A DNA stretch of 17,812 nt, taken from NCBI GenBank assembly GCA_027031765.1, contig JALVPN010000025.1, forward strand, positions 1,982 to 19,793. The letters are read 5' to 3'. Every line of letters starts with the position of its first letter. Position 1 is the stretch's first letter. The notes under the pieces are model-generated. The model saw only the letters and a program-made list of their open reading frames with translations. It was not told where the DNA came from and searched no databases. Made by a program: the position numbers and the translations under genes. This document shows, piece after piece, positions 2,463-17,812 of the stretch. Source of the stretch: Promethearchaeota archaeon. Its GTDB lineage: Archaea > Asgardarchaeota > Thorarchaeia > Thorarchaeales > Thorarchaeaceae.

Positions 2463-4304
2463 TCAATGGTCATCAGGTGGCGGGACAGTATTGAAGATGA
2501 GTCGGAATGTCAGACCGGACGAGGGGTCGTCACGGATACGGTGGTCAACGTGCAGGGAAACGCCGTACTTGTCAGCCAGGGTGCGGACGATGTGGAGGCC
2601 GACACCACCGAAACGGCGGCCCGTGCTGAACAGGCCCTTGAGGGCCTCACCAGACAGTCCCGGGCCGTTGTCGGAGACCGTGAGCTCGAACAGGCCATCT
2701 TTCACCACACCGTGCACCCAGACGGTGGGGTCGTCACGGGGGTTGTGACGCACCGCATTCTCAAGGATGTTCCAGAGCATCTGGCTGAGGGCGCTGTCGG
2801 CCATGACCCAGACAGTGGGTGCACCGTCATACTTGACGTCCACATCGTACATCTGTCTGATAAGCGAGACCTCGGACTCAAGGACTTCTGTGAGGTTGAC
2901 GGGCTGCATGGGAACTCCCTTGGCCTGCTCGATTGAGCGCACCTTGGCAATCAGGTCGATGCACTTCTGTGCGCCACTACGGACGTACTGCTGGGACGAA
3001 CGGATTGTCTTCTCTGGTGCGTCAGGGTCACACAGGTCGACGCCGGCCATGATGAGCTGGAGCTGGTTACCAATATCGTGTAGCAGGAGGTCCAGCAGGA
3101 ACCGCGCCTCGGCCTCGGCCTGACGGAGCTCGGACACATCTGTGAATATGGCGAAACTGCCCTTGTACCTGTGGTGTGCATCGAACAGTGGTGCTGCACT
3201 GACAACGACCGGGATGAGCCGGCCAGACCTGTGTACGAGCTGGGCGCTGTACCGTTCAGTGATCCCGGCCCTGCGGGCAGCCTGCCGTGCCTGTGACTGT
3301 TCCTCAGTGATGCCGTAGATAATCTCCGTGTCGTGTTTGCTAATCAGGTCGTCGGTAGACGAGTAGCCGAGCATGCGGACAAGGGCGTTGTTGGCATACA
3401 CGAGGGCCCCGTCCTCATCATCGATTGCCAAGCCATCGACCATGGTCTCTACGAGGGACCTGAACTTGTACTCGCTATCTTCTAGGGCACGCTTGCTCTC
3501 TACGGTCTCGGTAATGTCGAGTATCTGCGCAACACTCTTGACCTTACCATCGGAAGTGCGGAGGACTGTGCTGTGGACCTGCACGTAACGTGGCTCACCA
3601 CTACTGTGCATCACGCGGAACTCGTAGACCCGGGGCACCTCCTCACCACGCTGTCGACGCCGGTAGCGGTCTGCAACGAGGGGCACATCATCGGGGTGGA
3701 GGAACTCGCGGAAGTCGTGGCCCAGTACTTCGCGGTGCGTGCGGCCGAGGATATCACAGAAGCGGCTGTTCACGAACTCGAACCGGTAGTCATCGTCCAC
3801 GACTACTATCCCGACATGCGAGTGCTCCACAATCAGCTGGAGGATGTCCGACTTCGCACGCATGCGTTCCTCGACTACCTCACGGCGCGACATGTCCAAC
3901 AAATAGACCATGAAACCCGCCTCAGTACCATGTCCGTCGGGAATCAGCGATGCAAATGCCTCGACGGGCACCTGGACACCGTCGACACGAACAATACGGA
4001 TGGACACCGAGGAGGGGGGCAACCCATCGACGAGGCGGGCAATGCCCGTCCGGACGAAAGACAGGTGTTCTTGAGCAATCAGGCGGTCAAGGGGGACACC
4101 CTTCAGAGAATCGAAGTTGTCGGCACCCAGCAGGTCTAGGGCGGCACTGTTAGCATAGGTGAGGTTCAGGTCCGTATCAAACCCGACCACTGGAAGTGTC
4201 ATCTTGTCAACAACACTCCTTACGGCAAGAAGATTCGGGGGTTCTGGCGCCTCATGTCTATCTGTCATCTCGCTGACCCTGTGTGAGAAGTGGTACAGAT
4301 GCAC
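2463..4304 (-). CDS. Soluble sensor histidine kinase with three PAS domains (start GTG 4304 or ATG 4268)
   Basis: Three PAS-like repeats (YANSAALDLLG, FVNSRFCDILG, YANNALVRMLG) each followed by a PAC-like segment. H-box LLLHDIGNQL, N-box WNILENAVRH, G1 VSDNGPG, G2 GGVGLHIV. No hydrophobic segment and no receiver domain. Confidence 0.92.
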   Translation of the reverse strand: MHLYHFSHRVSEMTDRHEAPEPPNLLAVRSVVDKMTLPVVGFDTDLNLTYANSAALDLLGADNFDSLKGVPLDRLIAQEHLSFVRTGIARLVDGLPPSSVSIRIVRVDGVQVPVEAFASLIPDGHGTEAGFMVYLLDMSRREVVEERMRAKSDILQLIVEHSHVGIVVVDDDYRFEFVNSRFCDILGRTHREVLGHDFREFLHPDDVPLVADRYRRRQRGEEVPRVYEFRVMHSSGEPRYVQVHSTVLRTSDGKVKSVAQILDITETVESKRALEDSEYKFRSLVETMVDGLAIDDEDGALVYANNALVRMLGYSSTDDLISKHDTEIIYGITEEQSQARQAARRAGITERYSAQLVHRSGRLIPVVVSAAPLFDAHHRYKGSFAIFTDVSELRQAEAEARFLLDLLLHDIGNQLQLIMAGVDLCDPDAPEKTIRSSQQYVRSGAQKCIDLIAKVRSIEQAKGVPMQPVNLTEVLESEVSLIRQMYDVDVKYDGAPTVWVMADSALSQMLWNILENAVRHNPRDDPTVWVHGVVKDGLFELTVSDNGPGLSGEALKGLFSTGRRFGGVGLHIVRTLADKYGVSLHVDHRIRDDPSSGLTFRLIFNTVPPPDDH

Positions 4305-4333
4305 TCACACTGCCACTTGAGATTCGGTATACA

Positions 4334-4348
4334 CCTTAATATGTTTTC
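4334..4348 (-). promoter_or_regulatory. BRE/TATA promoter of the histidine kinase gene
   Basis: Minus strand GAAAAC-A-TATTAAGG, 30 nt upstream of GTG 4304. Confidence 0.6.
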
Positions 4349-4435
4349 ATAGCACCACGTATCCCAGATGCGGGTGTGTGGGCACGTCGACTGGGAGCCT
4401 GCAGTGTACCTAGGCAGTACGTATCGGCCGCGTCG

Positions 4436-4450
4436 ACAAGAGATTAAAGG
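4436..4450 (+). promoter_or_regulatory. BRE/TATA promoter of the AOR-1 operon
   Basis: ACAAG-AG-ATTAAAGG about 52 nt upstream of TTG 4503; AGGAG at 4487-4491. Confidence 0.55.
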
Positions 4451-4502
4451 GGGGTGACGTACAGACCATAGTTCTCAGCACGGACAAGGAGTTTCATACA
4501 CA

Positions 4503-4994
4503 TTGGAGCAGGTGATTGTGGTCAGGGCAGAGCTATGTACCGGTTGTCGGGACTGCGAACTGGCGTGTTCGGTCCGACAGACCGGCACATTCAACCCCAG
4601 CAGGTCGAGGGTGCAGGTCATGAAGGACGAGACCACCGGCACCGTCCTGCCAGTACTGTGCCTACAGTGCGATGTCCCACTGTGTCGTCAAGCATGTCCC
4701 GTGGGGGCACTGGTGGAGGGGCCGGGTGGCGCGCTTACCGTGAGGGAGGACAGGTGCATCGGCTGTGGCTCTTGTGTTACAGCGTGTGTATATGGTGGGA
4801 TTGAGCTGGACCCAAAGACACGGCTCGCTGTCAAGTGTGACCTGTGTGGTGACGGCCCACCGGCATGCGTGGCCGCCTGTGAGTATGGGGCCCTCGAGCT
4901 ACAGGAGCGGGACAGGGGGCTTGTCGGACGACTTGACGGCGTCCGCACGGTCATGCGGGCGTACGGTGTTGGAGAGGAGGCGGTACGCAATTGA
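4503..4994 (+). CDS. 4x[4Fe-4S] electron-transfer protein (DmsB/CooF-like; probable AOR small subunit), 163 aa
   Basis: Four Cys groups: CTGCRDCELAC, CLQCDVPLCRQACP, CIGCGSCVTAC, CDLC..CVAAC. TTG start is the first start after an in-frame TGA at 4455. Its stop overlaps the AOR-1 start (TTGA). Confidence 0.93.
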   Translation: MEQVIVVRAELCTGCRDCELACSVRQTGTFNPSRSRVQVMKDETTGTVLPVLCLQCDVPLCRQACPVGALVEGPGGALTVREDRCIGCGSCVTACVYGGIELDPKTRLAVKCDLCGDGPPACVAACEYGALELQERDRGLVGRLDGVRTVMRAYGVGEEAVRN

Positions 4995-6940
4995 CGTTCC
5001 CATACAAGGGGTATGCAGGGAGGTACGTCGAGGTAGACCTGGGCTCACAGGACGTGAGCATAAAGGAGATGCGGAAGGACTGGGCACTGTACTACCTTGG
5101 CGGGACGGGCGTTGCAGCAAGGGTGTTGTGGGACAGGACGGGCCCCGACACTGCACCGCTCTCGCCTGACAGCGTGCTGGTCGTTGGGACAGGACCGCTC
5201 ACCGGGGTGATGTTCTCACCAGCAGGCCGGATGATGTTCGCTGCGAGGAGCCCGCTCACCGGGGTGTGGGGCGAGAGCCATGTCGGTGGGTTCTTTGGCC
5301 CCGAGATGAAGTTTGCCGGTTTCGACATGGTCGTGATAACCGGCCGGGCGGAGCACCCGGTCTACCTCCTGTTGCGGGACGGACACGCTGAGCTCCGTGA
5401 TGCCCGGCACCTGTGGGGCCGTGAGACCGACACGGTGACGTACATGCTCAGGGAGGAGCTCGGTGACCCGACCGTTGAGACCGCCGTGATTGGGCCTGCC
5501 GGGGAGAACCTTGTGGCATACGGTGCTGTGATAGTGGACATGTACCGTGCGGCAGGCCGCACCGGGATGGGCACGGTAATGGGCTCCAAGAACCTGAAGG
5601 CGGTGGTGGCCAGTGGCAGCCTGGGCCTTGAGGCACATGACATGGACGCTTACCTCAGGGCGAATGAGGTGGAGCTGCAGAGGCTCCGGGACCCACTGTG
5701 GGAGGCGTCCCTGGGCTCGCTCCGCAAGTACGGCACTACCGACCTCGTGGCGATAATCAATGAGATTGGACGGCTGCCGACGAAGAACCACTGGACCGGT
5801 TACTTTGAACGTGCCGACGAGATAGGGCCCGAGGCGATAGCGGAGAGGTACCGGCTGGCACAGGAGGCCTGTTTTGGCTGTCTGATAGGGTGCAAGTACG
5901 TGTACCGTATTGATAGTGGACGGTACCGCAGTGGGCCTGCTGGCGGGCCGGAGTACGAGACCCTGATGGCCTTTGGGTCGAACTGTCTGAACGCAGACCT
6001 CGAGTCCGTGATCTATCTGGGCCACAGGTGCGACCTGCTGGGGATGGACACCATTTCGTGTGGCAAGACAATCGGGTTCGCGATGGAGCTCTGGGAGAAG
6101 GGACTCCTGACGGCGGAGGACACCGGGGGCCTCGACCTCTCGTGGGGCAACACGGAGACGATGGCGGAACTTGTGGAACTGATTGCAAGGCGTGAGGGTA
6201 TTGGCGACCTGCTCGCGCGTGGTGTGAGGGAGGCTGCCGAGACTGTTGGTGGTGATGCGTGGAAGTACGCAGTCCACGTCAAGGGCCTTGAGGCATCCGG
6301 GCAGGACCCCAGGGCCCACCAGTCGATTGGACTCACCTATGCCACCAATGTCCGCGGTGCTGACCACCTGCGCAGTCTGTCAAGCCTTGAGGAGCTCGGG
6401 TACCCGGAGATTGTCATCCAGCGCTTCGGCAAGGAGAAGGCGGACGGGATCCTCGACATCATGTCACCACTGTACAAGGGCGAGCTGATAAAGGACGTTG
6501 AAGACCTGTACGCGCTCGTGGACTCGGCGGTGATATGCAAGTATGGTACCATGTGGCCGCCCGTATACTACTTCGACACGTTCACCAACATCATCCCGCC
6601 ACTGACCGGTATGACGGAGTGGGGCGACATGGCCTTCGTCCGCAGCGCTGCAGAGAGGACCTGTCACCTGCGACGCGCATACAACCACAGGCTGGGCCTG
6701 ACACGGGAGCACGAGACCCTGCCGAAGAGGCTGTTGGAGGAGCCAATGCCCACCGGGCCGGCCAAGGGTGGCCTGCCAGACCTCGACGTGATGCTTGACG
6801 AGTACTACCAGTACAGGGGTTGCGACAGGACGACAGGCCTCCCACTCCGCGGCACACTGGAACGGCTCGGCCTCTCAGACATTGCTGACGACCTTGAGAG
6901 GAGGGGCGTGCTCGCAGGCGGGCCGTCAGATACCTCATGA
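4991..6940 (+). CDS. aor: Tungstopterin aldehyde:ferredoxin oxidoreductase family protein (AOR-1), 649 aa
   Basis: RSPLTGVWGESHVGG, GRTGMGTVMGSKNLKAV, Fe-S motif CFGCLIGC plus distal Cys (VICKYG), GPEYET, CDLLGMDTIS, DPR, RGADH. Substrate not assignable. Confidence 0.95.
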   Translation: MTFPYKGYAGRYVEVDLGSQDVSIKEMRKDWALYYLGGTGVAARVLWDRTGPDTAPLSPDSVLVVGTGPLTGVMFSPAGRMMFAARSPLTGVWGESHVGGFFGPEMKFAGFDMVVITGRAEHPVYLLLRDGHAELRDARHLWGRETDTVTYMLREELGDPTVETAVIGPAGENLVAYGAVIVDMYRAAGRTGMGTVMGSKNLKAVVASGSLGLEAHDMDAYLRANEVELQRLRDPLWEASLGSLRKYGTTDLVAIINEIGRLPTKNHWTGYFERADEIGPEAIAERYRLAQEACFGCLIGCKYVYRIDSGRYRSGPAGGPEYETLMAFGSNCLNADLESVIYLGHRCDLLGMDTISCGKTIGFAMELWEKGLLTAEDTGGLDLSWGNTETMAELVELIARREGIGDLLARGVREAAETVGGDAWKYAVHVKGLEASGQDPRAHQSIGLTYATNVRGADHLRSLSSLEELGYPEIVIQRFGKEKADGILDIMSPLYKGELIKDVEDLYALVDSAVICKYGTMWPPVYYFDTFTNIIPPLTGMTEWGDMAFVRSAAERTCHLRRAYNHRLGLTREHETLPKRLLEEPMPTGPAKGGLPDLDVMLDEYYQYRGCDRTTGLPLRGTLERLGLSDIADDLERRGVLAGGPSDTS

Positions 6941-6950
6941 GGGGGGCACC

Positions 6951-8069
6951 GTGGCAGACCTCAGCGTTACCGTTGCTGGCCTGACGTTCAGGAACCCCGT
7001 GCTCACGGCGGCCGGCCCCACTTCAAGGGACGGCGCGACACTCATGAGGGCGGCCGCTGGGGGCGCTGGCGGTCTCGTCACCAAGACCGTGAGCACCCGG
7101 CCTGCAGAGGTACCAAGACCGAACATGGCGGCCCTTGAGCCCGGTGCGGGGGGCCTCAGGAAGGGGCTGCTCAACGCAGAGCTGTGGAGCGAGCTCCCTG
7201 TGGAGAGGTGGCTGGAGTCCGAGTATAGGGCGGCCCTGAGCACCGGGCTGACCGTAGTCGCGAGCATCGGGTACACCCCCGAAGAGGTCACAGCGCTCGC
7301 GCCCAGGGTGGTGGAGACCGGCGTCCATGCACTTGAGTTCAGCACGCACTATGTGGGCGGACATGCTGAGATAGCACGGGCACTCAGGGACGCCGTGGAT
7401 GTGCCCATCTTTGCAAAGCTCAGTCCGCATGTGGACGTCGTTGCCACTGCGCGTGCGGTGGAGGAGTATGTGGACGGCATCGTTGCGGTCAACACCTACG
7501 GGCCATGTCTTAGGATTGACATCGAGACGGCAACGCCAGTCCTCGGTGGGCCGGGGGGGCGCGGGTGGATGAGCGGGTCCGCACTACGACCAATCGCGCT
7601 CAGGTGTGTGGCTGACATAGCGCTGGCTGTGGACATCCCGGTGGTCGGTGTGGGCGGTGTCACCACTGGTGAGGATGCCATCGAGTTCTTCATGGCTGGT
7701 GCGTCAGCAGTACAGGTGTGTACGGCAGCGGTCACGTACGGGGACGGGGTCTACGGCCGCATTGCACAGCAGATCAGTGACTGGCTCGACAGTCACGGCT
7801 ACGACTCTGTTGACGACATCCGCGGGGCAGCACTGGAACACCTCGACCGTGGTGTGACGCTCAGCCCGCCACCAAGGGTGGACATGGAGCTGTGCACTCT
7901 GTGCGGTCTGTGTGCTAGGACATGTGTGTACGGCGCCGTCCTCGTCGACAGGGAGGCGCACGAGCTGCGCATAGACCCCGGGCGCTGTCAGGCATGTGGC
8001 ATGTGCATATCGGTCTGTCCCCACAGGGCACTGGGTGGCGTCACCATGGCCACACATGAGGACAGGTGA
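6951..8069 (+). CDS. PreA/dihydropyrimidine dehydrogenase- or DHODH-like FMN TIM barrel with a C-terminal 2x[4Fe-4S] domain and an atypical active-site loop, 372 aa
   Basis: FRNPVLTAAGP, GGLVTKT, LNAEL, FAKLSP, DGIVAVNT, MSGSALRPIALR, GVGGVTTGEDAIEFFMAGASAVQV; C-terminal CTLCGLCARTC and CQACGMCISVCP. Start set at GTG 6951, after GAGGGGGG and 10 nt past the AOR-1 stop. Confidence 0.88.
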   Translation: MADLSVTVAGLTFRNPVLTAAGPTSRDGATLMRAAAGGAGGLVTKTVSTRPAEVPRPNMAALEPGAGGLRKGLLNAELWSELPVERWLESEYRAALSTGLTVVASIGYTPEEVTALAPRVVETGVHALEFSTHYVGGHAEIARALRDAVDVPIFAKLSPHVDVVATARAVEEYVDGIVAVNTYGPCLRIDIETATPVLGGPGGRGWMSGSALRPIALRCVADIALAVDIPVVGVGGVTTGEDAIEFFMAGASAVQVCTAAVTYGDGVYGRIAQQISDWLDSHGYDSVDDIRGAALEHLDRGVTLSPPPRVDMELCTLCGLCARTCVYGAVLVDREAHELRIDPGRCQACGMCISVCPHRALGGVTMATHEDR

Positions 8070-8208: not shown

Positions 8209-9393
8209 CTATACGAACTGGACATCGTCGAGGCCGCTGGTGAGCCTCTCTGCACGCCTCCCGCTTACCACATAGTCGTTCTCAATCCTGACACCGCCGA
8301 CCTGACGCAGGTAGACCCCCGGCTCCACAGCCAGGACATGACCACGCTCCAGGCGGTCCGAGTACCTGTAGAAGGTCGGGAGCTCGTGGACGAACAGGCC
8401 GATGCCGTGGCCCAGGCTGTGGGTCATGCCCTCCTCGGCACGCGGGTTCAGGCGTGTTGAGTCGAAACCGTATCGTCTGAGGGTGTCATAGCAGGCCATA
8501 TTGACCTCATCCATAAGTGCGCCCTCGGAGAGTGCGTCGGCAGCGGCACTGTGTGCCTCACTGACCGCATCGAACATCCTGCGGAGCTCAGGGGGGACAC
8601 TACCACGGACAACAGTCCGTGTGACATCAGCCACGTATCGTTCCAGCTTCAGGCGCGGGAACACATCTATTATGATGGGCACCTCTGCGTGGAGTCTGTC
8701 ATCAGGCGAGCCGAGGTAGTGCCAGTCGAAGCCGAGGCGGCCGACAGCAACTATTGTGTCCTCTGCGGTCTCGGCACGGCGGTCGAGCAGGAAGTGGTCG
8801 AGGGCACTCTTGATGTCACCAACAGTGAGTGGCTGGCCGTCGCGCAGCAGGACCTTGTTGGGGCCGACGGTCGTCTCGGCAATCAGGTCGATGACATGCT
8901 GGACCGCCCCGATGGTCGCCCTGCCCGCCTTCCGGATCATCTCGACCTCGCGCGGTGACTTTGTGGCGCGGGCCTCTGTGAGCAGGTAGGGCACCACCTT
9001 GACCTTATAGCCGAGGTCCTGGAGCGCAACAAGGATGTGGGCCGGCAGGTGCGTGGGGACACCTATCACATCACCTGAGAAGAGCTCTTTCAGCACACTA
9101 CCAAAGACGGCAGCAGGGTCGTCCATCAGGCGTTTGTTCTCGGCTATCAGCTGCAGCATTATCTCGCTGGTGTCAAAGGTCCTGCGGACAGTGCTCTCTT
9201 TTCGGACCCTCTCAAGAGTGTTGAAGCCCGCTGCCACGACCGTGTCCTCGCCACGGTTGCGCAGGACTATGACCTCGTCGCTTGAACGGAAGCCCGTGAG
9301 CCAGAACACGTCAGGTGTCGTAAAGGCGTTCCCGTACATGAGGACAGCGTCAATGCCCGCCTCCTCCATGAGCCTGTCCAGGTCTTCAATCAC
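8209..9393 (-). CDS. M24B metallopeptidase (Xaa-Pro aminopeptidase/prolidase family), about 394 aa
   Basis: Metal ligands D (IIDVFP), D (YVADVTRT), H (HSLGHGIG), E (AVEPG), E (VRIEND), with an N-terminal creatinase-N-like domain. Start chosen at GTG 9393 (GGTGGA upstream, TATA-like element at 9442-9435) rather than 9483. Confidence 0.9.
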   Translation of the reverse strand: MIEDLDRLMEEAGIDAVLMYGNAFTTPDVFWLTGFRSSDEVIVLRNRGEDTVVAAGFNTLERVRKESTVRRTFDTSEIMLQLIAENKRLMDDPAAVFGSVLKELFSGDVIGVPTHLPAHILVALQDLGYKVKVVPYLLTEARATKSPREVEMIRKAGRATIGAVQHVIDLIAETTVGPNKVLLRDGQPLTVGDIKSALDHFLLDRRAETAEDTIVAVGRLGFDWHYLGSPDDRLHAEVPIIIDVFPRLKLERYVADVTRTVVRGSVPPELRRMFDAVSEAHSAAADALSEGALMDEVNMACYDTLRRYGFDSTRLNPRAEEGMTHSLGHGIGLFVHELPTFYRYSDRLERGHVLAVEPGVYLRQVGGVRIENDYVVSGRRAERLTSGLDDVQFV

Positions 9394-9434
9394 AGTGTCC
9401 ACCACAGCAGGTTGCGGCCACCCAGACCGGGGGG

Positions 9435-9449
9435 TATCAAAAGTGTTTC
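9435..9449 (-). promoter_or_regulatory. Candidate BRE/TATA for the M24 peptidase gene
   Basis: Minus strand GAAAC-AC-TTTTGATA about 42 nt upstream of GTG 9393. Confidence 0.4.
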
Positions 9450-9525
9450 TCTCGGGGCCTGAAAAGGCCACATACAGCATCACCCCATAGGACGAAACCT
9501 TCTCCCAGTCGGCCCTGACGGGCAG

Positions 9526-10413
9526 TCACAGGTAGGGGGCCATGCGTTGCTCGACATCATCACGTGATGGCACCACATACGGGCCGACCGTTTCAAGGTT
9601 GAAGGAGGCACAGGTCGCGCCGAAGAGGGCGGCCCGCCAGAGGTCATGGGTCATGGAGTACTCGACCAGCAGGCCGACCATATAGGTATCACCGCAGCCT
9701 GTGGCATCGACCACACGACGTGGGGGCACTGCCGGGATGTCCAGCCTCTCGTCGGCAGTGAACAGAGTGGAGCCCCTACGCTCTCTTGTCACGACAATGA
9801 TAGAGGGGCCAAGAGAGAGCAGGTACTCGACAGCTCCCGACTCGGAGCCACAGCCGGTGGAGAGCAGCAGTTCGTCCTCGTCAGCCTTCACCACGTCGAC
9901 GAGCGGCAGGTACTCCTCACGGTGCGGCCATTGGCCGTACACCACAGACCTGCCGTGGGCCGTACGGACGAAGCCCTGCACATCAAGGGAAACGAGGGCT
10001 CCGGAGCGACGCGCGCGTCTCAGACATGTGACACTGACCTCGTGGGCAGTGATGGGACAGAAGTGGACGCAGCTGGCGGAGAGGTGTCTGTCGGTCAGGT
10101 CTGTGGGGCGGACTGGGGGCGCCACTGCTTCGAGGCGCTGTAATCTCCTGCCAGAGGCATCGTACTCGTTCACGAAACGGGTGGTGTGGGGGCCCTCTAT
10201 GGTCATGCCACTGAGGTCGAGGCCGGAGGAACGCAGGGCGCGGGTGTACTCCTCCTCGAAGTCCAAGCCGACCTTGGTGACCACGGCCGTACCGGAGGTA
10301 CCGACCGCAGGGCCGAGCATGGCATAGGCGGGCCCGCCGCCGAGGACCTCGCGACGGAAGGTGGGTGTGATGACGAGGTCACGGCTCAGGTGTCCTACGA
10401 CGGTCAGGTCCAT
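9526..10413 (-). CDS. PfkB/ribokinase-family carbohydrate or nucleoside kinase, 295 aa
   Basis: N-terminal VVGHLSRD, LGGGPAY, VKADEDE, and the C-terminal anion-hole signature VDATGCGDTY. Confidence 0.92.
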   Translation of the reverse strand: MDLTVVGHLSRDLVITPTFRREVLGGGPAYAMLGPAVGTSGTAVVTKVGLDFEEEYTRALRSSGLDLSGMTIEGPHTTRFVNEYDASGRRLQRLEAVAPPVRPTDLTDRHLSASCVHFCPITAHEVSVTCLRRARRSGALVSLDVQGFVRTAHGRSVVYGQWPHREEYLPLVDVVKADEDELLLSTGCGSESGAVEYLLSLGPSIIVVTRERRGSTLFTADERLDIPAVPPRRVVDATGCGDTYMVGLLVEYSMTHDLWRAALFGATCASFNLETVGPYVVPSRDDVEQRMAPYL

Positions 10414-10823: not shown

Positions 10824-12212
10824 ATGAAGGGGCATGTCGACCTGGTGGTCAGGGATGCAAGGCTCCTGCTCGAGTCGGGACTGGTACGGGGGGGCGTTGC
10901 CGTCATGGACGGGAGGATATGCGCGGTCGCCACAGACGAGCACCTGCCGCCGGCGGACACCACCGTTGATGGACGCGGACGCATCCTGATGCCGGGCCTG
11001 ATTGACGCACACGCACACATCCACGACCCCGCAGCCCTTGACCACGAAGACTTCACCACCGGCTCAAGGGCGGCCGCTGCCGGCGGGGTGACCACGGTAA
11101 TAGACATGCCACTGACAAGCCAGCTCGACACTGTTGAGGCCCTCGAACAGCGCGTCAGGACAGGCGAGGAGATGTCCATTGTAGACTTTGGGCTCTACGC
11201 CGGGATGATGAGGCACGACAACGTGGCCATCATACCGCAGATGCTCGGACACGGAGTGGGCGGCTTCAAGGCGTTCACGTGCGAGCCGTACCGGGTAGAC
11301 TCGGGGGTCATCATGCGCCTGCTGAGTGAGGTCTCTGAGCACGGCGGACACCTCACTGTCCACGCTGAGGACCAGGGCGTGCTCGATGAGTTCGGTAGGG
11401 ACATGGACGGCGAGTGGGACGCACCGGTGAGCCATGCCCTCTCAAGGCCCGAGATAGCAGAACAGCTGGCAGTGCACGGGGTCATTGCCATTGCGAGGGC
11501 CACGGGCGGTCATGTCCACATAGCCCACGTGACCACACGTGGTGGCCTCCGCGAGGTGGAGCTGGGGCGGCTGCATGGGGTCAGGGTGACGACCGAGGTC
11601 TGTCCGCACCACCTTGTGTTCGACCGTGACCAGATGAACCGTTTCGGGCCGGTCAGCAAGATGACCCCACCGCTGAGGTCCAGGGAGGACAGGGCAGCGC
11701 TGTGGTCGGGCCTCCTCATGGGCTCGGTCAACATTGTAGTGAGCGACCACGCACCCTGCCCCCCTGACGAGAAGGAGGCCGGTCGGGACGACATCCGGGA
11801 GGCGTGGGCCGGTGTTGACGGTGTCCAGATGATACTGCGCGTCCTGCTGTCAGAGGGCATCAACAGGGGACGGTTGTCATTTGGGAGGCTGCTGCGTGCC
11901 ACTACACGTGACCCGGCCCGGCTCTTTGGCCTGTACCCGAAGAAGGGTGCCATCCGTGTCGGTGCAGATGCAGACCTTGTGCTCGTCGACCCCACGCTGG
12001 AACAGAAGGTCACGGCGGACATGATGTTCTCCAAGTGTGGCTGGACACTGTACGAGGGGCTGGTGATGAAGGGGGCGCCCGTGATGACATTTGTCCGTGG
12101 AGTCCCTGTCTTCGAGGACGACCGTACGACCGTAGCCCCAGGACACGGGCGCTTCCAGCCTGCGGGGTCGGGACTGACACGCGCCATGGGCCAGCCGGAT
12201 GTCCACCCGTGA
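10824..12212 (+). CDS. Cyclic amidohydrolase (allantoinase/hydantoinase/dihydroorotase family), 462 aa
   Basis: PGLIDAHAH, AAAGGVTTVIDMP, carbamylated-Lys strand GFKAF, HAED, HIAH, EVCPHHL, PPLR, SDHAP, GAIRVGADADLV; GAGGAGG upstream of the ATG. Confidence 0.93.
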   Translation: MKGHVDLVVRDARLLLESGLVRGGVAVMDGRICAVATDEHLPPADTTVDGRGRILMPGLIDAHAHIHDPAALDHEDFTTGSRAAAAGGVTTVIDMPLTSQLDTVEALEQRVRTGEEMSIVDFGLYAGMMRHDNVAIIPQMLGHGVGGFKAFTCEPYRVDSGVIMRLLSEVSEHGGHLTVHAEDQGVLDEFGRDMDGEWDAPVSHALSRPEIAEQLAVHGVIAIARATGGHVHIAHVTTRGGLREVELGRLHGVRVTTEVCPHHLVFDRDQMNRFGPVSKMTPPLRSREDRAALWSGLLMGSVNIVVSDHAPCPPDEKEAGRDDIREAWAGVDGVQMILRVLLSEGINRGRLSFGRLLRATTRDPARLFGLYPKKGAIRVGADADLVLVDPTLEQKVTADMMFSKCGWTLYEGLVMKGAPVMTFVRGVPVFEDDRTTVAPGHGRFQPAGSGLTRAMGQPDVHP

Positions 12213-12366: not shown

Positions 12367-14013
12367 CTAGACCGCAATCGGCTCGACCGTGATGCCCAGT
12401 GACCGGAGCCTTGTGGCCTCGTCGATGGGCTGACCAGTGTCAGGGTCGATTGCACGGCATGCGCCATCTATCATCCGTGTCCTGAGCTCACCGCGGGCAA
12501 CAGGGTTGTCACGCAAGTGCGGTGCATCGAGCACACCGGTCTCCACAGCACGGACGTAGGTGCGTGGGTCGGTCAGTGGGTCACGGGCGTCCTCTGGTGC
12601 GAGCGACGCGATTGCCCTGATGAGGACGCGTGCCTCCCGGACGAGCTCGTCCTTCCGCGCCCTGACAACCGGGTCGTGCAACGGGTCAGGCAGTCCCTGC
12701 AGGCAGTCATGGATCACACGGCGGGCAATCCGGCAGCTCTCGATGACCTCCTCGGCCGTGGCAGCATGGTCGGCTTCACAGAAGCCCACCACATGGACTA
12801 TGTGTGGTCGGAGCATCATGCCCGTGTGGACCGAGGCGGCGAGCTGGCCCTTGCCCATGTCAAGGTCTGGCGGGTACGAGAACAGGCCCGGCCGGATCTG
12901 GCGCACCGATGTGAAGGTGTGGTCGTGGAGGGACTCCACAAGCTCGATCTTGGCCAGCATCTTTGCCAGGTCCATCTGGGGTGAGGTGCCCAGAGGTGTA
13001 TTGAGCATGTACTGGGCCACGTAGTGCCTGACGCCAGCGGCCTTTGCATTGTATGCTGAGAGGTATGCCATTGCCACTGCAATGGTGTCATGGGCGCTCC
13101 GCAGGCTCCAGTGGTGCGGCTCGTTGAACTCCACGGGGATGCCGTGACGTGCGTGCCAGCGGTGGTTCTCCTGGTTCTCAGTGATGGCGTCGAGGAGTGG
13201 ACGGTCGCTGCGGCCGTCGAGGACGCTGTACCACATCAGTGGCGTTGCACACCACGCATTGTTGATGGTCTCCTTGAGCATCCTGGCCCACTTCAGCAGG
13301 TCCCGGGTGCCACTGTAGCACCTGAGGAGCGGGTAGTTTCCACGTCGTGACACCTCGTAGATGCGCCTCAGGTCTTCAGGGCTCCGTATGGGCACGCCGC
13401 CGTCGCCCTCGAGGTAGGGCCTCATCTCGTCAGGCCTGAAGAACGACGCCTGGGCGTTCTGGTCGGGGCCGAGGGAGATCACATCGAGGACTCCGCTCTC
13501 AGCAATCTTCGCCACACCCTCGACCGTTTCCTCAAGGGACGGCAGGCCGAAGTGGTGGCGCAGGACGGGCACGGGGCTCTTGACGACAATCCGGGTCATG
13601 AGGTCCTGCGGGTTGCGCTCTTCAGCAGGCATCGATGTCCTGCCACGCAGGTAGTCGACCACATCCTCGCGTGTCGAGAAGCCGGTGAATATCTGTTCGA
13701 ACAGCCCGGTCTTCTCGGCGACTGGTCTTATGGGGGCCGTGCAGCCCAGCACCCAGCGCTTGTGTTGTAGGCCCGCCTCTTCCACAGCGCTCTTGAGCTC
13801 TCTTAGCAGGCGCTCCGCACTCTCGACCGTCAGCCGATAGCTCACACCCACAACATCGGGGTCGTGTTCCTTGACCGCCTCGATGAGCCTCTCGATGGGT
13901 GTTGCTGGGCCCAGGAATATGGTCTCATGACCCTCCTGTTCCGCGAGGTCGAGGAACCCCAGCACTCCAGCGACATGCACACAGTTCCCGATTGCTGCAC
14001 CCAGGTACTTCAT
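12367..14013 (-). CDS. Cobalamin-dependent protein: N-terminal B12-binding domain fused to a glutamate-mutase-epsilon-like TIM barrel, 548 aa; substrate unknown
   Basis: N-terminus LGAAIGNCVHVAG...DVVGVSYRL...EAGL..WVLG has the base-off/His-on B12 pattern. The rest matches GlmE blocks by eye (RAVETGVLDAP vs KAFETGVMDIP; VHVVGFCEA vs VIVKTPHEA; YSGTRD vs RHGTPD). B12 binding is well supported; the mutase call is inference. Confidence 0.8.
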   Translation of the reverse strand: MKYLGAAIGNCVHVAGVLGFLDLAEQEGHETIFLGPATPIERLIEAVKEHDPDVVGVSYRLTVESAERLLRELKSAVEEAGLQHKRWVLGCTAPIRPVAEKTGLFEQIFTGFSTREDVVDYLRGRTSMPAEERNPQDLMTRIVVKSPVPVLRHHFGLPSLEETVEGVAKIAESGVLDVISLGPDQNAQASFFRPDEMRPYLEGDGGVPIRSPEDLRRIYEVSRRGNYPLLRCYSGTRDLLKWARMLKETINNAWCATPLMWYSVLDGRSDRPLLDAITENQENHRWHARHGIPVEFNEPHHWSLRSAHDTIAVAMAYLSAYNAKAAGVRHYVAQYMLNTPLGTSPQMDLAKMLAKIELVESLHDHTFTSVRQIRPGLFSYPPDLDMGKGQLAASVHTGMMLRPHIVHVVGFCEADHAATAEEVIESCRIARRVIHDCLQGLPDPLHDPVVRARKDELVREARVLIRAIASLAPEDARDPLTDPRTYVRAVETGVLDAPHLRDNPVARGELRTRMIDGACRAIDPDTGQPIDEATRLRSLGITVEPIAV

Positions 14014-15194
14014 GTCATGTCCACCTCCAGGTCGAAGGGCTCCCAGACTTCTGGCAACAGCACCTCCTCCTCCAGACGCATACCTGTCTGTACATATTCC
14101 ATCACGGCCTCCGGGGACATGCCGTGCAGGCCCATGCGTTCCAGTGTCCTGCCACTCATCCAGAAGGAGCGCTCGTACAGGTGGCAGGCCAAGTTCACCA
14201 CTGCTCTGATTGTCGGGGTGTCCACACCCACCAGCCTACCGAGATATGCGATTGGGACCAGGCCGGTGGGCACATCCTCAAGGACATAACGGTGTTCAAG
14301 AGACGACGGGCTGCCGATGTTGTTATAGACATCAGTGCTGCGGATGCACTCGTAGAGCGTTTTCCCACGGGCGTTGTAGGCCTCTCTGAACCAGTCTAGG
14401 AGCGAGGTCGCATGTACACCAAAGGCACGGGCCACCTCAACACGCTCTGCGTCCATCCGTTCGATGAGACGCCCCACAGTGGGGGATATCGCGTCATGGT
14501 AGTGGTTATACCCACCACCCCATGATTCCAGGAGACCAGCGTTCAGTATTGTCGGCGCAGGGTGTAGCATCGCACCCATGTTGTCTAGGCCGGTTTCCAT
14601 GACATCGTCTGCCGCACACAGTTTCAGTGGGACACCATCGAGCCGCCTGAGCATCTCGCGGGTGTCTGTTGCAGGGACAGCGCTGACACGTACCCTGCGC
14701 TTGACCTTTGACACACGCACTGAGTGGGGGCCTGTCGTCCGGGACACGAAGCAGTACGTCTGGGCCTCACCGACAATGACATCGTCAGGCGCCCTGTGAC
14801 GCGCGAGCACCTCTACGAACTCGAGTGCACCGCCGGTCCGGCCCGGCATCAGCAGCACCACCTGTCCGGGCTGGAGGTGCGGTGCGACCACGCGCGCCAT
14901 GAACGGGTGTCCCGTGGCGGGGACGGCCACGATGATGATGTCGCGACCCGCAATCGCCTCCTGTAGGTCGCCGGTGACCACTGAGAGCCTCGCATGGCCG
15001 TTGATGACACCCTCCACATCGAGGCCCCCATGTCTCGCGATGTCCCTGATGTTGTTGAACGTACGGTTGTAGAGCGACACATCAAGGCCCTGCAGTGCCA
15101 AGTAGCCTGCAAGTCCACGACCAGCATGACCACCACCGAGTACTGCCACCTTGCAGTCGCCGGTCTGTACTCTACGTCTACCCAGTCCGAACAC
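14010..15194 (-). CDS. NAD(P)-dependent opine (octopine/nopaline) dehydrogenase family protein, about 394 aa
   Basis: Rossmann motif VAVLGGGHAG, YNRT, PGRTGGALE, NMGAMLHPAPTILNAG, DAERVEVA, HRYVLEDVPTGLVP. Start set at GTG 15194, 9 nt after AGGAGGT. Its stop overlaps the B12 gene start (ATGA). Confidence 0.92.
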   Translation of the reverse strand: MFGLGRRRVQTGDCKVAVLGGGHAGRGLAGYLALQGLDVSLYNRTFNNIRDIARHGGLDVEGVINGHARLSVVTGDLQEAIAGRDIIIVAVPATGHPFMARVVAPHLQPGQVVLLMPGRTGGALEFVEVLARHRAPDDVIVGEAQTYCFVSRTTGPHSVRVSKVKRRVRVSAVPATDTREMLRRLDGVPLKLCAADDVMETGLDNMGAMLHPAPTILNAGLLESWGGGYNHYHDAISPTVGRLIERMDAERVEVARAFGVHATSLLDWFREAYNARGKTLYECIRSTDVYNNIGSPSSLEHRYVLEDVPTGLVPIAYLGRLVGVDTPTIRAVVNLACHLYERSFWMSGRTLERMGLHGMSPEAVMEYVQTGMRLEEEVLLPEVWEPFDLEVDMT

Positions 15195-15258
15195 GCTGTA
15201 GATACCTCCTCTCTGACTGTCCAAGACGTAGCCCCCGCCTGTGGCCACATGGTAGTCC

Positions 15259-15273
15259 ACATATAGAGTACTG
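15259..15273 (-). promoter_or_regulatory. Weak candidate TATA for the opine dehydrogenase-B12 protein operon
   Basis: Minus strand CAGTACT-CTATATGT about 65 nt upstream of GTG 15194. Confidence 0.3.
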
Positions 15274-15571
15274 GTCACACTCAACCGGGGGCCAGTGGAC
15301 GTAGGTTCGTTGCTCGCCAATGCCACGCCATCACACAGGGGCGTGGTGGACTGTCTGTGCTACTCTCTCTTGCTCGCTTGCGACACTCATACTACATTCT
15401 CGTGCTGTCCTTATGAGTATTGCGAAGGGCTTGCTGGGGCACATTGGGCAGGCCTGGACAAGGACAACACCACCCGGTAGAGGTGTGATGTGGCGTCCAA
15501 CACTGGAGGACACCACGCAGCCCCACCGCTGACCAAGGGCACAGACCCTGGCAGGACAGTCCTCCGGAGCC

Positions 15572-15586
15572 ACAAGCTTCTATAGG
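15572..15586 (+). promoter_or_regulatory. Candidate BRE/TATA of the AOR-2 operon
   Basis: ACAAG-CT-TCTATAGG, same spacing as the AOR-1 promoter. Confidence 0.45.
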
Positions 15587-15644
15587 GAGGGTGCCCAGAG
15601 GGCTGGGTCTACCTACAGTGACCCACAGAGTGGATGAGCACGAG

Positions 15645-16136
15645 ATGACAGGACTGCCCTTTGTGTTTGGCGACCCCCACGTGTGTACAGGTTGCATGAT
15701 CTGTGTCAGTGTCTGCAGCATGCACTACTACAGGGTGATAAGTCCGGAGCGCTCGCGGGTCAGAGTGGTCAGACTGGAAGGGGGCCTTGACTTCCCGCTG
15801 TTCTGTCGCAACTGTGAGGACGCCCCGTGTATCGAGGCATGCCCCGAGGACGCACTGGCCAGGACATCGAAAGGGGTGATAGTGGTGAACAGCCGCAGGT
15901 GTACAGGCTGTGGCAGTTGCGTCAGTGCATGTCCGTACTATGCTATCAGGGTCAACCCTGACACTGGGAAGGCCTTCAAGTGCATCCAGTGTGGCGAGTG
16001 CACGGCATGGTGTCCTGTAGGTGCGATATGGATGACCACAGGTGCAGACCTTGAGAAACGCGACCCCGATGGTAGGCTCCGTGGACTGTACGAGCTCCAC
16101 GCCAGTGAGATATACGACAAGGGGGAGGTACAGTGA
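15645..16136 (+). CDS. 4x[4Fe-4S] electron-transfer protein (probable AOR small subunit), about 163 aa
   Basis: CTGCMICVSVC, CRNCEDAPCIEACP, CTGCGSCVSACP, CIQCGECTAWCP. Start ATG 15645 (GTG 15630 is an alternative). Its stop overlaps the AOR-2 start (GTGA). Confidence 0.93.
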   Translation: MTGLPFVFGDPHVCTGCMICVSVCSMHYYRVISPERSRVRVVRLEGGLDFPLFCRNCEDAPCIEACPEDALARTSKGVIVVNSRRCTGCGSCVSACPYYAIRVNPDTGKAFKCIQCGECTAWCPVGAIWMTTGADLEKRDPDGRLRGLYELHASEIYDKGEVQ

Positions 16137-17812
16137 AGGGTGTCGGTGGCACAGTACTGTGGGTCGACCTGACCCGGCGAGAGATAGAGCGGCGCCCACT
16201 GGACGAGGGTATTGTCCGGGAATACCTGCTCGGTGCAGGGTACCTGTCCCGACTGTTGTACGACCTCATCCCAGAGGACACGGACCCCCTGTCCCCACGG
16301 AACGTGCTCGGCATTGCCACCGGGCTCCTCACAGGCTCGATGTTCCCACAGTCATCAAGGCATGTGGTCGCAGCACTGTCACCGCTGACAGACATATGGG
16401 GCGAGAGCCATGCGGCTGGGTTCTGGGGCGCAGAGCTCAAGCTCGCCGGGTACGATGCCATACTGTTCACAGGCGCGGCGTCGGGGCCGGTGTACCTGGA
16501 CATCCATGACGATGATGTTGCGCTGCTGGACGCCTCAGACCTGTGGGGCTGCGATGTCTTCGAGACCGACAGGCGCCTGCGCAGGCGTCACGGCAGGGCG
16601 TGCAGGGTCCTTGCTATCGGACAGGCGGGCGAGAACCTTGTGAGGTTCGCTGCAATAATGAACGACAGGGACAGGGCCTCTGCCAGATCCGGGCTTGGTG
16701 CCGTGATGGGGTCGAAGCGCCTGAAGGCGGTCTGTGTGCGGGGCACCGGCAAGATCGAGGTCGCCGAGCCGGAGGACTATCTCAGGCACATGTGGGGTCT
16801 CCACAGGCGGATGCTGGCGAACCCGTTCACGGCCGGCCGTGCAGAGTATGGGACGACAGGCCTCATCGAGCTGATGCAGCATATCGGGAGGCTCCCCAGC
16901 TACAACATGCGCCAGGGCGTGTTCGAGGGCGCTGACAGGATAGGTGGCCACGCCATCAACGAGAAGTACCTCGTCAAGCCGCGGGCCGACTGGTGCTGCC
17001 TGCAGAGGTGTGGCAGGTACACGGCCGTCCGGGAGGGGCCCTACAGGTACGAGGGCGGCTCCCCAGAGTTCGAGTCCCAGTCGTCACTTGGCTCCCGTTG
17101 TGGCAACGACAACCTCGAGTCGATACTCTATGCCCACCACCTTGCCAACATGTACGGCATGGACACGATTTCCCTTGGGGCGACAATATCGTGGGCGATG
17201 GAGGCGTGGGACGAGGGCCTGCTCACAGAGGAGGACACGGGTGGCCTCGACCTCTCATGGGGCAACCACGAGGTGATAGTCGGGCTGACCCGCATGATTG
17301 CGTTCCGTGAGGGCTTCGGCGACCTCCTTGCAGAGGGCAGCTACCGTGCGGCCCAGCGCATCGGCCGGGGCACAGAGAGGTTCGTGATGGCGGTCAAGAA
17401 GCAGGAAATCGCAGGTCAGGAACCAAGGGCACAGAAGTCGATGGGGCTGGCGGCAGTGACGGCAGCACGTGGGGCCGACCACCTCTATGGGTTCCCGGTC
17501 CTGGACGAGGTGGGCTTCGACGATGAGATAAAGGAGCGGTACGGGGAGGAGTACCTGCCCGAGATGGCAGACAGGCTGAGCCCACGCCACAAGGGGGTGA
17601 TGGTAGAGATGTCGGAGAACTTCATGGTGGTAGTGGAGAGCGTAGGCGTCTGCAAGTACGGCACGCAGATACCGCCGGAGTTCTACTATGACGACATCGC
17701 CCTGGCACTCAGGGTGCACAACGGGCTGCAGTTTACAGCGGAGGAGCTCGAGACCATTGGCAAGAGGATAGTGAACCTGAACCGGTTGTTCAACGTACGC
17801 AGGGGCGTACGA
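16133..17812 (+). CDS. aor: Tungstopterin aldehyde:ferredoxin oxidoreductase family protein (AOR-2), truncated at the window edge (560 codons seen)
   Basis: Manual translation open from GTG 16133 (GGAGGT upstream) to the window end: MKGVGGTVLWVDLT..., LSPLTDIWGESHAAG, RSGLGAVMGSKRLKAV, DWCCLQRC, SPEFES, NMYGMDTIS, EPR, RGADHL, GVCKYGT. Absent from the ORF track. Confidence 0.95.
   Translation, partial: MKGVGGTVLWVDLTRREIERRPLDEGIVREYLLGAGYLSRLLYDLIPEDTDPLSPRNVLGIATGLLTGSMFPQSSRHVVAALSPLTDIWGESHAAGFWGAELKLAGYDAILFTGAASGPVYLDIHDDDVALLDASDLWGCDVFETDRRLRRRHGRACRVLAIGQAGENLVRFAAIMNDRDRASARSGLGAVMGSKRLKAVCVRGTGKIEVAEPEDYLRHMWGLHRRMLANPFTAGRAEYGTTGLIELMQHIGRLPSYNMRQGVFEGADRIGGHAINEKYLVKPRADWCCLQRCGRYTAVREGPYRYEGGSPEFESQSSLGSRCGNDNLESILYAHHLANMYGMDTISLGATISWAMEAWDEGLLTEEDTGGLDLSWGNHEVIVGLTRMIAFREGFGDLLAEGSYRAAQRIGRGTERFVMAVKKQEIAGQEPRAQKSMGLAAVTAARGADHLYGFPVLDEVGFDDEIKERYGEEYLPEMADRLSPRHKGVMVEMSENFMVVVESVGVCKYGTQIPPEFYYDDIALALRVHNGLQFTAEELETIGKRIVNLNRLFNVRRGVR

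Follow-up and report, generated by a model that had tools for sequence, protein, structure and literature searches.

The analysed stretch of DNA, here called the window, consists of 17,812 nucleotides (nt) of contig JALVPN010000025.1 from a Promethearchaeota archaeon of the Thorarchaeia, and includes on its minus strand a unit of two genes, one for an opine dehydrogenase and the other for a single-chain B12 protein resembling the adenosylcobalamin-dependent mutases. That the two genes are functionally coupled can hardly be doubted. The preferred reading, to which a probability of roughly 0.4 was given, is that they form a biosynthetic module, in which the dehydrogenase would make an N-(1-D-carboxyethyl) derivative of aspartate or glutamate and the B12 enzyme would then isomerise that opine. 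The coupled gene pair of the initial annotation was confirmed, and the family assignments of both genes and their translational coupling proved correct. The features of the unit are given below, with the dehydrogenase residue numbers (R163, G251, H255, R346, D351 and 64–69) counted from position 15326.

12367..14013, minus strand: single-chain adenosylcobalamin-type mutase-like gene, 548 amino acids (B12-binding Pfam match, AlphaFold2 model and nearest folds)
14010..15194, minus strand: opine dehydrogenase gene, 394 amino acids from GTG 15194 (Octopine_DH match, 1bg6 match and homologue lengths)
14010..14013, minus strand: ATGA stop/start overlap of the two genes (read from the sequence)
14021..14028, minus strand: GGAGGTGG, purine-rich element, putatively of Shine-Dalgarno type (read from the sequence)
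13639..14013, minus strand: five-stranded cobalamin-binding Rossmann domain of the B12 protein, residues 1–125 (model and VIA Z score 16)
13966..13983, minus strand: lower-ligand loop C11-V-H13-V-A-G16 of the B12 protein, CxHxxG in place of the canonical DxHxxG (translation and alignments)
12400..13623, minus strand: barrel and C-terminal part of the B12 protein, glutamate mutase E type, residues 131–538 (VIA-align and Foldseek)
15120..15137, minus strand: Rossmann motif GGGHAG of the dehydrogenase, residues 64–69 (read from the translation)
14274..14840, minus strand: active-site residues of the dehydrogenase, R163 and G251 (acidic-substrate pair) and H255, R346 and D351 (catalytic) (1bg6 alignment)

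The scan, in which one genome per species was used, found relatives of the B12 family in at least 589 species-level genomes, those of anaerobic archaea and bacteria, and linkage was counted from the best 80 loci. In 71 of these loci the dehydrogenase gene immediately preceded the B12 gene on the same strand, and in three it lay downstream of it, again on the same strand. It was absent despite room on both sides in one locus, and five loci were undecidable because of contig ends. A neighbourhood survey of this kind had been suggested in the initial annotation, for which usually unlinked homologues would have spoken against the proposed pathway; the adjacency turned out to be conserved, both genes being linked in 74 of the 75 decidable loci. 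The archaeal hosts of the loci included Thorarchaeota, Theionarchaea and Bathyarchaeia, and the bacterial hosts included Bacillota, Aminicenantes, Armatimonadota, Bacteroidota and Chloroflexota, with Thermoanaerobacter, Caldanaerobacter, Tepidanaerobacter, Bacteroidales and Melioribacter among them.

Among the 201 Asgard genomes sampled, 78 had the B12 gene, 80 a match to the dehydrogenase and 75 both, corresponding to 75 of the 83 genomes with either gene. The three genomes with the B12 gene only all had it at contig ends, and the matches in the five genomes with the dehydrogenase only were all weaker paralogues. The order is turned round in one Asgard clade, where the B12 gene precedes the dehydrogenase gene and the adjacency is retained. 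Both genes are single-copy in the studied genome. Another Asgard genome (G104) had two full pairs approximately 8 kb apart on the same strand of contig C23 (about 3208–5930 and 13931–16659), and a further one (G075) had two copies of the B12 gene on different contigs.

At the junction the minus strand reads GGAGGTGG-ACATGAC-ATGA-AG, the purine-rich element being located 7 nt before the B12 ATG. The stop codon TGA of the dehydrogenase occupies positions 14012–14010 and the start codon ATG of the B12 gene positions 14013–14011, and both reading frames are open (15326–14010 for the dehydrogenase and 14013–12367 for the B12 protein). The ATGA overlap at 14013–14010, the element GGAGGTGG just upstream of it and the two-gene unit, all described in the initial annotation, could be read directly in the sequence. 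The B12 start position agreed with the homologues, which in the alignment open M-K/R-I-L-G-A-A-I-G. Also in the related loci the junctions were tight: stop and start overlapped in 40 of 65 loci (by 4 nt in 16 and by 1 nt in 17), the genes were 0–30 nt apart in 21 and farther apart in four. Because such overlap or close spacing recurs in most of the 65 related loci, the translational coupling is not due to chance.

The frame of the dehydrogenase is open up to GTG 15326, 44 codons (15195–15326) above the likely start at GTG 15194, and gene callers may therefore annotate a 438-amino-acid product with a spurious N-terminal extension. The start at GTG 15194 was backed by the lengths of the homologues (357–397 amino acids, 397 in Thorarchaeota) and by their alignment, which starts about 14 residues ahead of the Rossmann strand, in agreement with the start proposed earlier. 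The downstream neighbour, an amidohydrolase gene (10824–12212, plus strand), is convergent to the pair, and the upstream neighbours, genes for a ferredoxin-like protein and then for an aldehyde ferredoxin oxidoreductase (AOR) (from 15591, plus strand), are divergent from it. The unit thus consists of exactly two genes.

The dehydrogenase matched the Pfam family Octopine_DH (PF02317) with 149.9 bits against a cut-off of 30, and the NAD-binding Pfam domains matched its residues 59–160. The full-length match to the Arthrobacter N-(1-D-carboxyethyl)-L-norvaline dehydrogenase (PDB 1bg6) had an E value of 2e-74, the identity being about 45% when judged by eye over the whole length. In this alignment A111 was paired with R163, N198 with G251, H202 with H255, R292 with R346 and D297 with D351, the catalytic His, Arg and Asp thus being kept. 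The Arthrobacter enzyme differs: it favours NADH as the cofactor and hydrophobic amino acids as substrates, and has no reported B12 partner. Among the B12-linked dehydrogenases, the equivalent of Arg163 was present in all 69, that of Gly251 in 68 of the 69 and those of the catalytic His, Arg and Asp in 68–69. The second Rossmann strand ends in L-Y-N-R (N87-R88) in the Asgard dehydrogenase and in W-D-I-D (D34-I35) in the NADH-using Arthrobacter enzyme. The former is the usual NADPH signature, which would imply the reductive, biosynthetic direction.

The six hot-spring opine dehydrogenases (mODHs) characterised by Telek et al. (2024) had L-Asp, L-Glu and cysteate as preferred substrates, with pyruvate as the 2-oxo acid. 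Most of them favoured NADPH, and in vitro they formed N-(1-carboxyethyl)-L-Asp and -L-Glu, their genomic context being unreported (PMC10787698). Double mutants constructed both ways showed that it is exactly the Arg111/Gly198 pair that decides whether acidic or hydrophobic amino acids are preferred (PMC10787698). Judged from the 1bg6 alignment, the Asgard dehydrogenase has this Arg/Gly acidic-substrate signature of the mODH subgroup, and it shares with the hot-spring enzymes also the NADPH-type site. Relatives with the same signature residues have been shown to condense amino acids and 2-oxo acids reductively, using NAD(P)H (PMC10787698), and by analogy the Asgard enzyme would do so as well.

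The B12 protein matched the Pfam B12-binding domain with 42.9 bits against a cut-off of 32.1, and its match to Met_asp_mut_E, the glutamate mutase E chain, was sub-threshold (22.2 bits against 26.6, residues 311–524). The AlphaFold2 model, based on an alignment of 36 sequences, was confident (pLDDT 94, pTM 0.87). Residues 1–126 of the model resembled the corrinoid proteins 1y80 and 4jgi and the B12 domain of a methylmalonyl-CoA mutase (2yxb) with a VIA Z score of 16, and the model has no cap domain ahead of the B12 domain. In VIA-align, residues 131–538 were superposed on residues 41–444 of 1cb7_B with a Z score of 33.0 and a root-mean-square deviation of 3.0 over 376 residues, and also Foldseek ranked glutamate mutase E first (E 3e-16). 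The next folds were those of lysine 5,6-aminomutase (Z 31), ornithine 4,5-aminomutase (Z 28) and methylmalonyl-CoA mutase (Z 22). All of the nearest folds were thus those of adenosylcobalamin isomerases, and no methyltransferase barrel was near the top. In the lower-ligand loop C11, H13 and G16 were invariant in alignment A1, and in alignment A4 H13 and G16 were invariant and C11 was present in at least 90% of the sequences. About 90 residues were invariant across archaea and bacteria in alignment A4.

Domain fusions were found among the relatives of the B12 protein. One orthologue was fused to an ATP-grasp domain of the glutathione-synthetase/RimK type, and another had a weak, sub-threshold match to an M15 domain of the D-Ala-D-Ala peptidase type (the two being P0134 and P0140). 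Three distant paralogues (P0153, P0160 and P0159; 600–1266 amino acids, 34–39% identity in the barrel) were fused C-terminally to the MutL/GlmL family, the putative glutamate mutase reactivase; such proteins would be self-repairing single-chain B12 isomerases.

Among the closest known systems is glutamate mutase GlmS/GlmE (EC 5.4.99.1; 1cb7, 6h9e), which has a His-on cobalamin Rossmann domain and a barrel of the same fold, and whose canonical operons have glmE adjoined by a gene of the same GlmL/MutL family to which the B12-protein paralogues are fused. Eight canonical glmE loci of Clostridia (L097–L104), with the order glmL-glmE-methylaspartase, were fetched for comparison. A 483-amino-acid GlmE from these loci had R66, R100, R149, E171, Y181, K326 and E330 at the positions that these residues occupy in the Clostridium cochlearium structure. 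A weak profile-profile alignment (hhalign, P 0.007) paired R149 of the arginine claw with the invariant Y233 of the B12 protein and the adenosyl-ribose-binding E330 with the invariant E413, so that E330 is seemingly kept. For the N-terminal half of the barrel hhalign gave no significant alignment and could not place the claw residues R66 and R100. When the profile of the B12 family was compared with PDB sequences, B12 domains were found and no GlmE chain. In contrast to glutamate mutase, the B12 protein is one 548-amino-acid chain rather than two subunits, has a sequence identity of 15% to it and a Pfam score below the cut-off, and has CxHxxG in place of DxHxxG and, according to the weak profile alignment, Tyr in place of R149. 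Furthermore, the studied locus has neither GlmL nor methylaspartase, the partner being an opine dehydrogenase. Given the single chain, the lack of GlmL and methylaspartase and the altered site alignment, the B12 protein falls outside glutamate mutase and represents a family of its own within the same superfamily.

Two kinds of genes recurred beside the pair. An asparagine-synthetase-B-like (AsnB-like) gene followed it in 18 of the 80 loci, and a D-Ala-D-Ala-ligase-like (Ddl-like) ATP-grasp gene was present in 14 of them, one of which belongs to an archaeon that lacks murein. The AsnB-like proteins were nearest to E. coli AsnB (E 3e-62). Most copies open M-A/G/S-G-I-A and hence lack the glutaminase Cys, which a few retain. 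A reading of the Cys-less copies as beta-lactam synthetases was rejected, the E value being 9e-29 against 3e-62 for asparagine synthetase B. In the studied genome, which is 95% complete, the search for an AsnB-like gene gave no clear orthologue, just a 32% fragment where a contig ends, and the search for a Ddl-like gene found nothing. The genes of the window likewise include neither of them, and the studied window is a minimal form of the module.

Of the 66 bacterial loci scanned against Rfam, 27 had the riboswitch RF00379, which senses cyclic di-adenosine monophosphate (c-di-AMP), upstream of the genes on the same strand. The scores of 26 matches were 68–118 bits against a threshold of 38, and one match was borderline. 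All the loci with this riboswitch belonged to Bacillota, Armatimonadota or unclassified bacteria, and in one of them (L058) it precedes an ATP-grasp gene heading the operon. No cobalamin riboswitch was seen in the scan of the 66 bacterial loci, and the Rfam scan of the window gave no match, as is to be expected of an archaeon. The c-di-AMP riboswitch turns genes off at high c-di-AMP, and its regulon consists mostly of potassium and osmolyte uptake. In one Bacillota locus (L074:3679–3740, plus strand) a fluoride riboswitch (RF01734, 50 bits) was found directly before the pair, in the place that the c-di-AMP riboswitch has in other genomes. In a Tepidanaerobacteraceae locus (L085:234–317, plus strand) a c-di-GMP-I-GGC riboswitch was located about 3.3 kb upstream of the pair, and this genome also has a c-di-AMP riboswitch directly before it.

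From the observed coupling, fold, conserved residues and riboswitch association we infer substrates, an order of steps and a physiological role. The NADPH-type dehydrogenase would reductively condense an acidic L-amino acid, similar to Asp or Glu, with pyruvate, as its characterised relatives do, and would thereby yield a tricarboxylic secondary amine of the N-(1-D-carboxyethyl) amino acid type. To judge from its modelled fold, the cobalamin enzyme, a single chain of the His-on type, may then isomerise this opine through adenosylcobalamin radical chemistry, by a 1,2 shift of either the carbon skeleton or the nitrogen. In many other genomes, though not in the studied one, an AsnB-like amidation or a Ddl-like ligation of the product would follow. 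In Bacillota and Armatimonadota the operon, lying behind the c-di-AMP riboswitch, would be on at low c-di-AMP if it follows the known behaviour of this riboswitch class, and the product would for that reason most likely be a compatible solute, either anionic or amidated, or else a counter-ion to potassium. Biosynthesis was preferred over catabolism because of the NADPH-type site, the acidic signature, the ATP-dependent amide-forming partners and the riboswitch. These same features made a modified opine metabolite, one half of the third alternative of the initial annotation, the best fit, and the metallophore named in its other half found no support. The placing of the dehydrogenase first leans on the altered substrate site of the barrel and on a D-alanine-like moiety that a Ddl-like ligase could recognise; such a moiety in the product is hinted at by the ATP-grasp and M15 orthologues together with the Ddl-like neighbours. 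A wider claim is more doubtful than the module itself, namely that the B12 protein would be the first adenosylcobalamin radical isomerase acting on an opine (an N-carboxyethyl acidic amino acid), free of pyridoxal 5'-phosphate (PLP) and with a Cys-His ligand pair, and that with its dehydrogenase it would make a new class of anionic or amidated compatible solutes or potassium counter-ions. The module would then range from Asgard archaea as far as Bacillota and, in bacteria, be under c-di-AMP control.

Several points weigh against the module as described. None of the results decides which of the two steps comes first, and the literature includes no joint study of either clade with its partner and no product. 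We know of no mutase with Cys for the Asp of DxHxxG, and the cobalamin binding of the B12 protein is a prediction. The search of the studied genome for the reactivase PF13941 gave no match; in favour of the module, a CobA-type adenosyltransferase gene is present there. On L-Asp the related dehydrogenases had a kcat of about 1 per s and a Km of 0.5–25 mM, which is poor (PMC10787698), and Asp and pyruvate may for this reason not be the native pair. The B12 linkage of the characterised hot-spring enzymes could not be shown: seven conserved mODH-48 peptides, of about 16 amino acids each, matched the linked dehydrogenases at identities of up to about 65%, and the mODH-48 locus was not found among the 80 loci. 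In addition, since the riboswitch was not found in archaea, the link to salt or potassium stress is transferred to them from bacteria.

The opposite order of the steps is rather unlikely. The B12 enzyme would then rearrange a free acidic amino acid, from a glutamate-like compound to a branched isomer such as 3-methylaspartate, and the dehydrogenase would trap this unfavoured isomer with pyruvate and NADPH. The nearest fold is that of glutamate mutase E, and as the equilibrium of glutamate mutase lies toward glutamate, a reductive trap would be thermodynamically sensible; the poor kinetics of the related dehydrogenases on Asp and Glu would fit a different, branched native substrate, and in one Asgard clade the B12 gene leads. 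This order is opposed by the sub-threshold Met_asp_mut_E match, by the failure of the family profile to find any GlmE chain by sequence, by the pairing of the claw residue R149 with an invariant Tyr in the sole, weak profile alignment, and by the missing canonical partners methylaspartase and GlmL. A catabolic pair, in which the mutase would rearrange an amino acid or an imported opine and the dehydrogenase cleave it oxidatively, was considered unlikely. The hosts are mostly peptide-fermenting anaerobes, the pattern of a B12 aminomutase with a dehydrogenase is established in lysine and ornithine fermentation, and the fold is nearly as close to those aminomutases (Z 28–31) as to glutamate mutase. 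The cofactor site is nevertheless of the NADPH type, the riboswitch is an off-switch linked to potassium and osmolyte uptake and not to a nutrient, the recurrent partners form amide bonds using ATP, and neither a transporter nor a downstream catabolic gene is conserved beside the pair. An opine or amino acid that is rearranged and then cleaved, as the initial annotation had also envisaged, thus became less likely.

The initial annotation had furthermore proposed, as a speculation, that a 2-oxo-acid imine or opine replaces PLP to allow a 1,2-nitrogen shift. As considered here, the imine formed on the dehydrogenase between an amine and a 2-oxo acid would stand in for the PLP aldimine, and the B12 enzyme would shift the nitrogen by one carbon, from an alpha- to a beta-alanine type. 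The PLP-binding Lys of lysine 5,6-aminomutase presumably lies about 11 residues after the cobalt-ligating His; the B12 protein has no Lys 11 residues past this His and none between H13 and K48, and another imine partner would therefore be needed. The fold, which resembles those of the PLP-dependent aminomutases for lysine and ornithine almost as closely as that of glutamate mutase, and the conserved translational coupling would agree with such a mechanism. It is, however, without known precedent and demands a complex or else that a labile imine be channelled, and the connection with pyrimidine breakdown proposed for it relies on window neighbours that are not conserved in Thorarchaeota with a B12 protein about 75% identical; it was judged very unlikely. 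The synthesis of a metallophore, analogous to staphylopine and pseudopaline, was given hardly any weight. A secondary amine with three carboxylates would be a metal chelator, the staphylopine and pseudopaline pathways end with opine dehydrogenases, and a CorA-type channel adjoins the pair in some Thorarchaeota, but the locus lacks any conserved gene for a nicotianamine-synthase-like protein, an exporter or an importer, and no metal-related regulation was seen, the riboswitch sensing c-di-AMP. The least probable explanation was that the B12-domain protein is a corrinoid methyl carrier or a regulator instead of a radical isomerase, and that the pair may share no pathway. The Cys in place of the Asp of DxHxxG and the NCBI annotation as methionine synthase or cobalamin-binding protein are consistent with it. 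The barrel, however, matches only adenosylcobalamin isomerases at high Z scores, a cap domain is lacking, the linkage to the dehydrogenase is near-universal, and the approximately 90 residues invariant from archaea to bacteria argue for a catalytic site.

The pairing is already known as a prediction. Zhang, Rodionov, Gelfand and Gladyshev (BMC Genomics 2009) devoted one paragraph to a predicted novel B12-dependent family with a distant N-terminal B12-binding domain, "always adjacent to" pfam02317 in 11 bacteria of four phyla and, in several organisms, close to a D-Ala-D-Ala ligase and an asparagine synthase (PMC2667541). On the basis of the B12-binding domain and the pfam02317 adjacency, the Asgard B12 protein belongs to the same family; the optional ligase and asparagine synthase neighbours are missing in the studied genome. 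The 2009 description does not assign a fold to the large domain and says nothing of regulation or of likely substrates (PMC2667541). The additions made here are the archaeal distribution, the fold assignment, the failed membership in glutamate mutase, the Arg/Gly signature and the size of the riboswitch association. In the literature linking opine or octopine dehydrogenases with cobalamin or glutamate mutase, the 2009 paper was the only one found, and no later characterisation was found. The pair had initially been described as a candidate undescribed pathway; the pathway is indeed uncharacterised, but the pairing itself had been predicted in 2009 (PMC2667541).

Also the lysine 5,6- and ornithine 4,5-aminomutase systems resemble the pair, having a barrel fold nearly as similar as that of glutamate mutase (Z 28–31) and combining a B12 isomerase with an NAD(P) dehydrogenase acting on a C–N bond. 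They differ in that their mutases need PLP on a Lys of the Rossmann domain, which the Asgard B12 protein lacks at that spacing, while the dehydrogenases are of other families and the operons serve catabolism.

To our knowledge, few kinds of adenosylcobalamin isomerase exist among characterised enzymes and new ones are rare, and the opine dehydrogenases of bacteria and archaea are so far known mainly as biocatalysts. Solving the reaction of the B12 family would give a new B12 reaction and a physiological role for many bacterial and archaeal opine dehydrogenases; it would also add a new output of c-di-AMP signalling and test how Cys in place of the conserved Asp affects the cobalt ligand. The question is directly testable, since related dehydrogenases have already been expressed and assayed and hosts of the pair (Thermoanaerobacter, Caldanaerobacter, Tepidanaerobacter) have been cultured.

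Related Thorarchaeota with about 75% identity in the B12 protein already have other genes flanking the pair, and the amidohydrolase, PreA-like and AOR genes of the window are therefore probably unrelated to the pair. A catabolic island including these genes was accordingly rejected, the neighbours being absent from the related Thorarchaeota loci. Four genes of the window, at 881–2401, 8209–9483 and 9526–10413 on the minus strand and at 10824–12212 on the plus strand, are two amidohydrolases, an M24 peptidase of the creatinase/prolidase type and a PfkB kinase; none of them recurs beside the pair in the related genomes. The window has also two separate units of a ferredoxin-like gene and an AOR gene on the plus strand (4503–8069 and 15591–17812), the first being followed by a flavoprotein, similar to dihydroorotate and dihydropyrimidine dehydrogenases, with a C-terminal 4Fe-4S domain. 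A hydrothermal-vent DNA metagenome was the only sequencing run matched to the stretch and may be its source sample. The closest matches to the B12 protein, with 75–83% identity, were from named Thorarchaeota.

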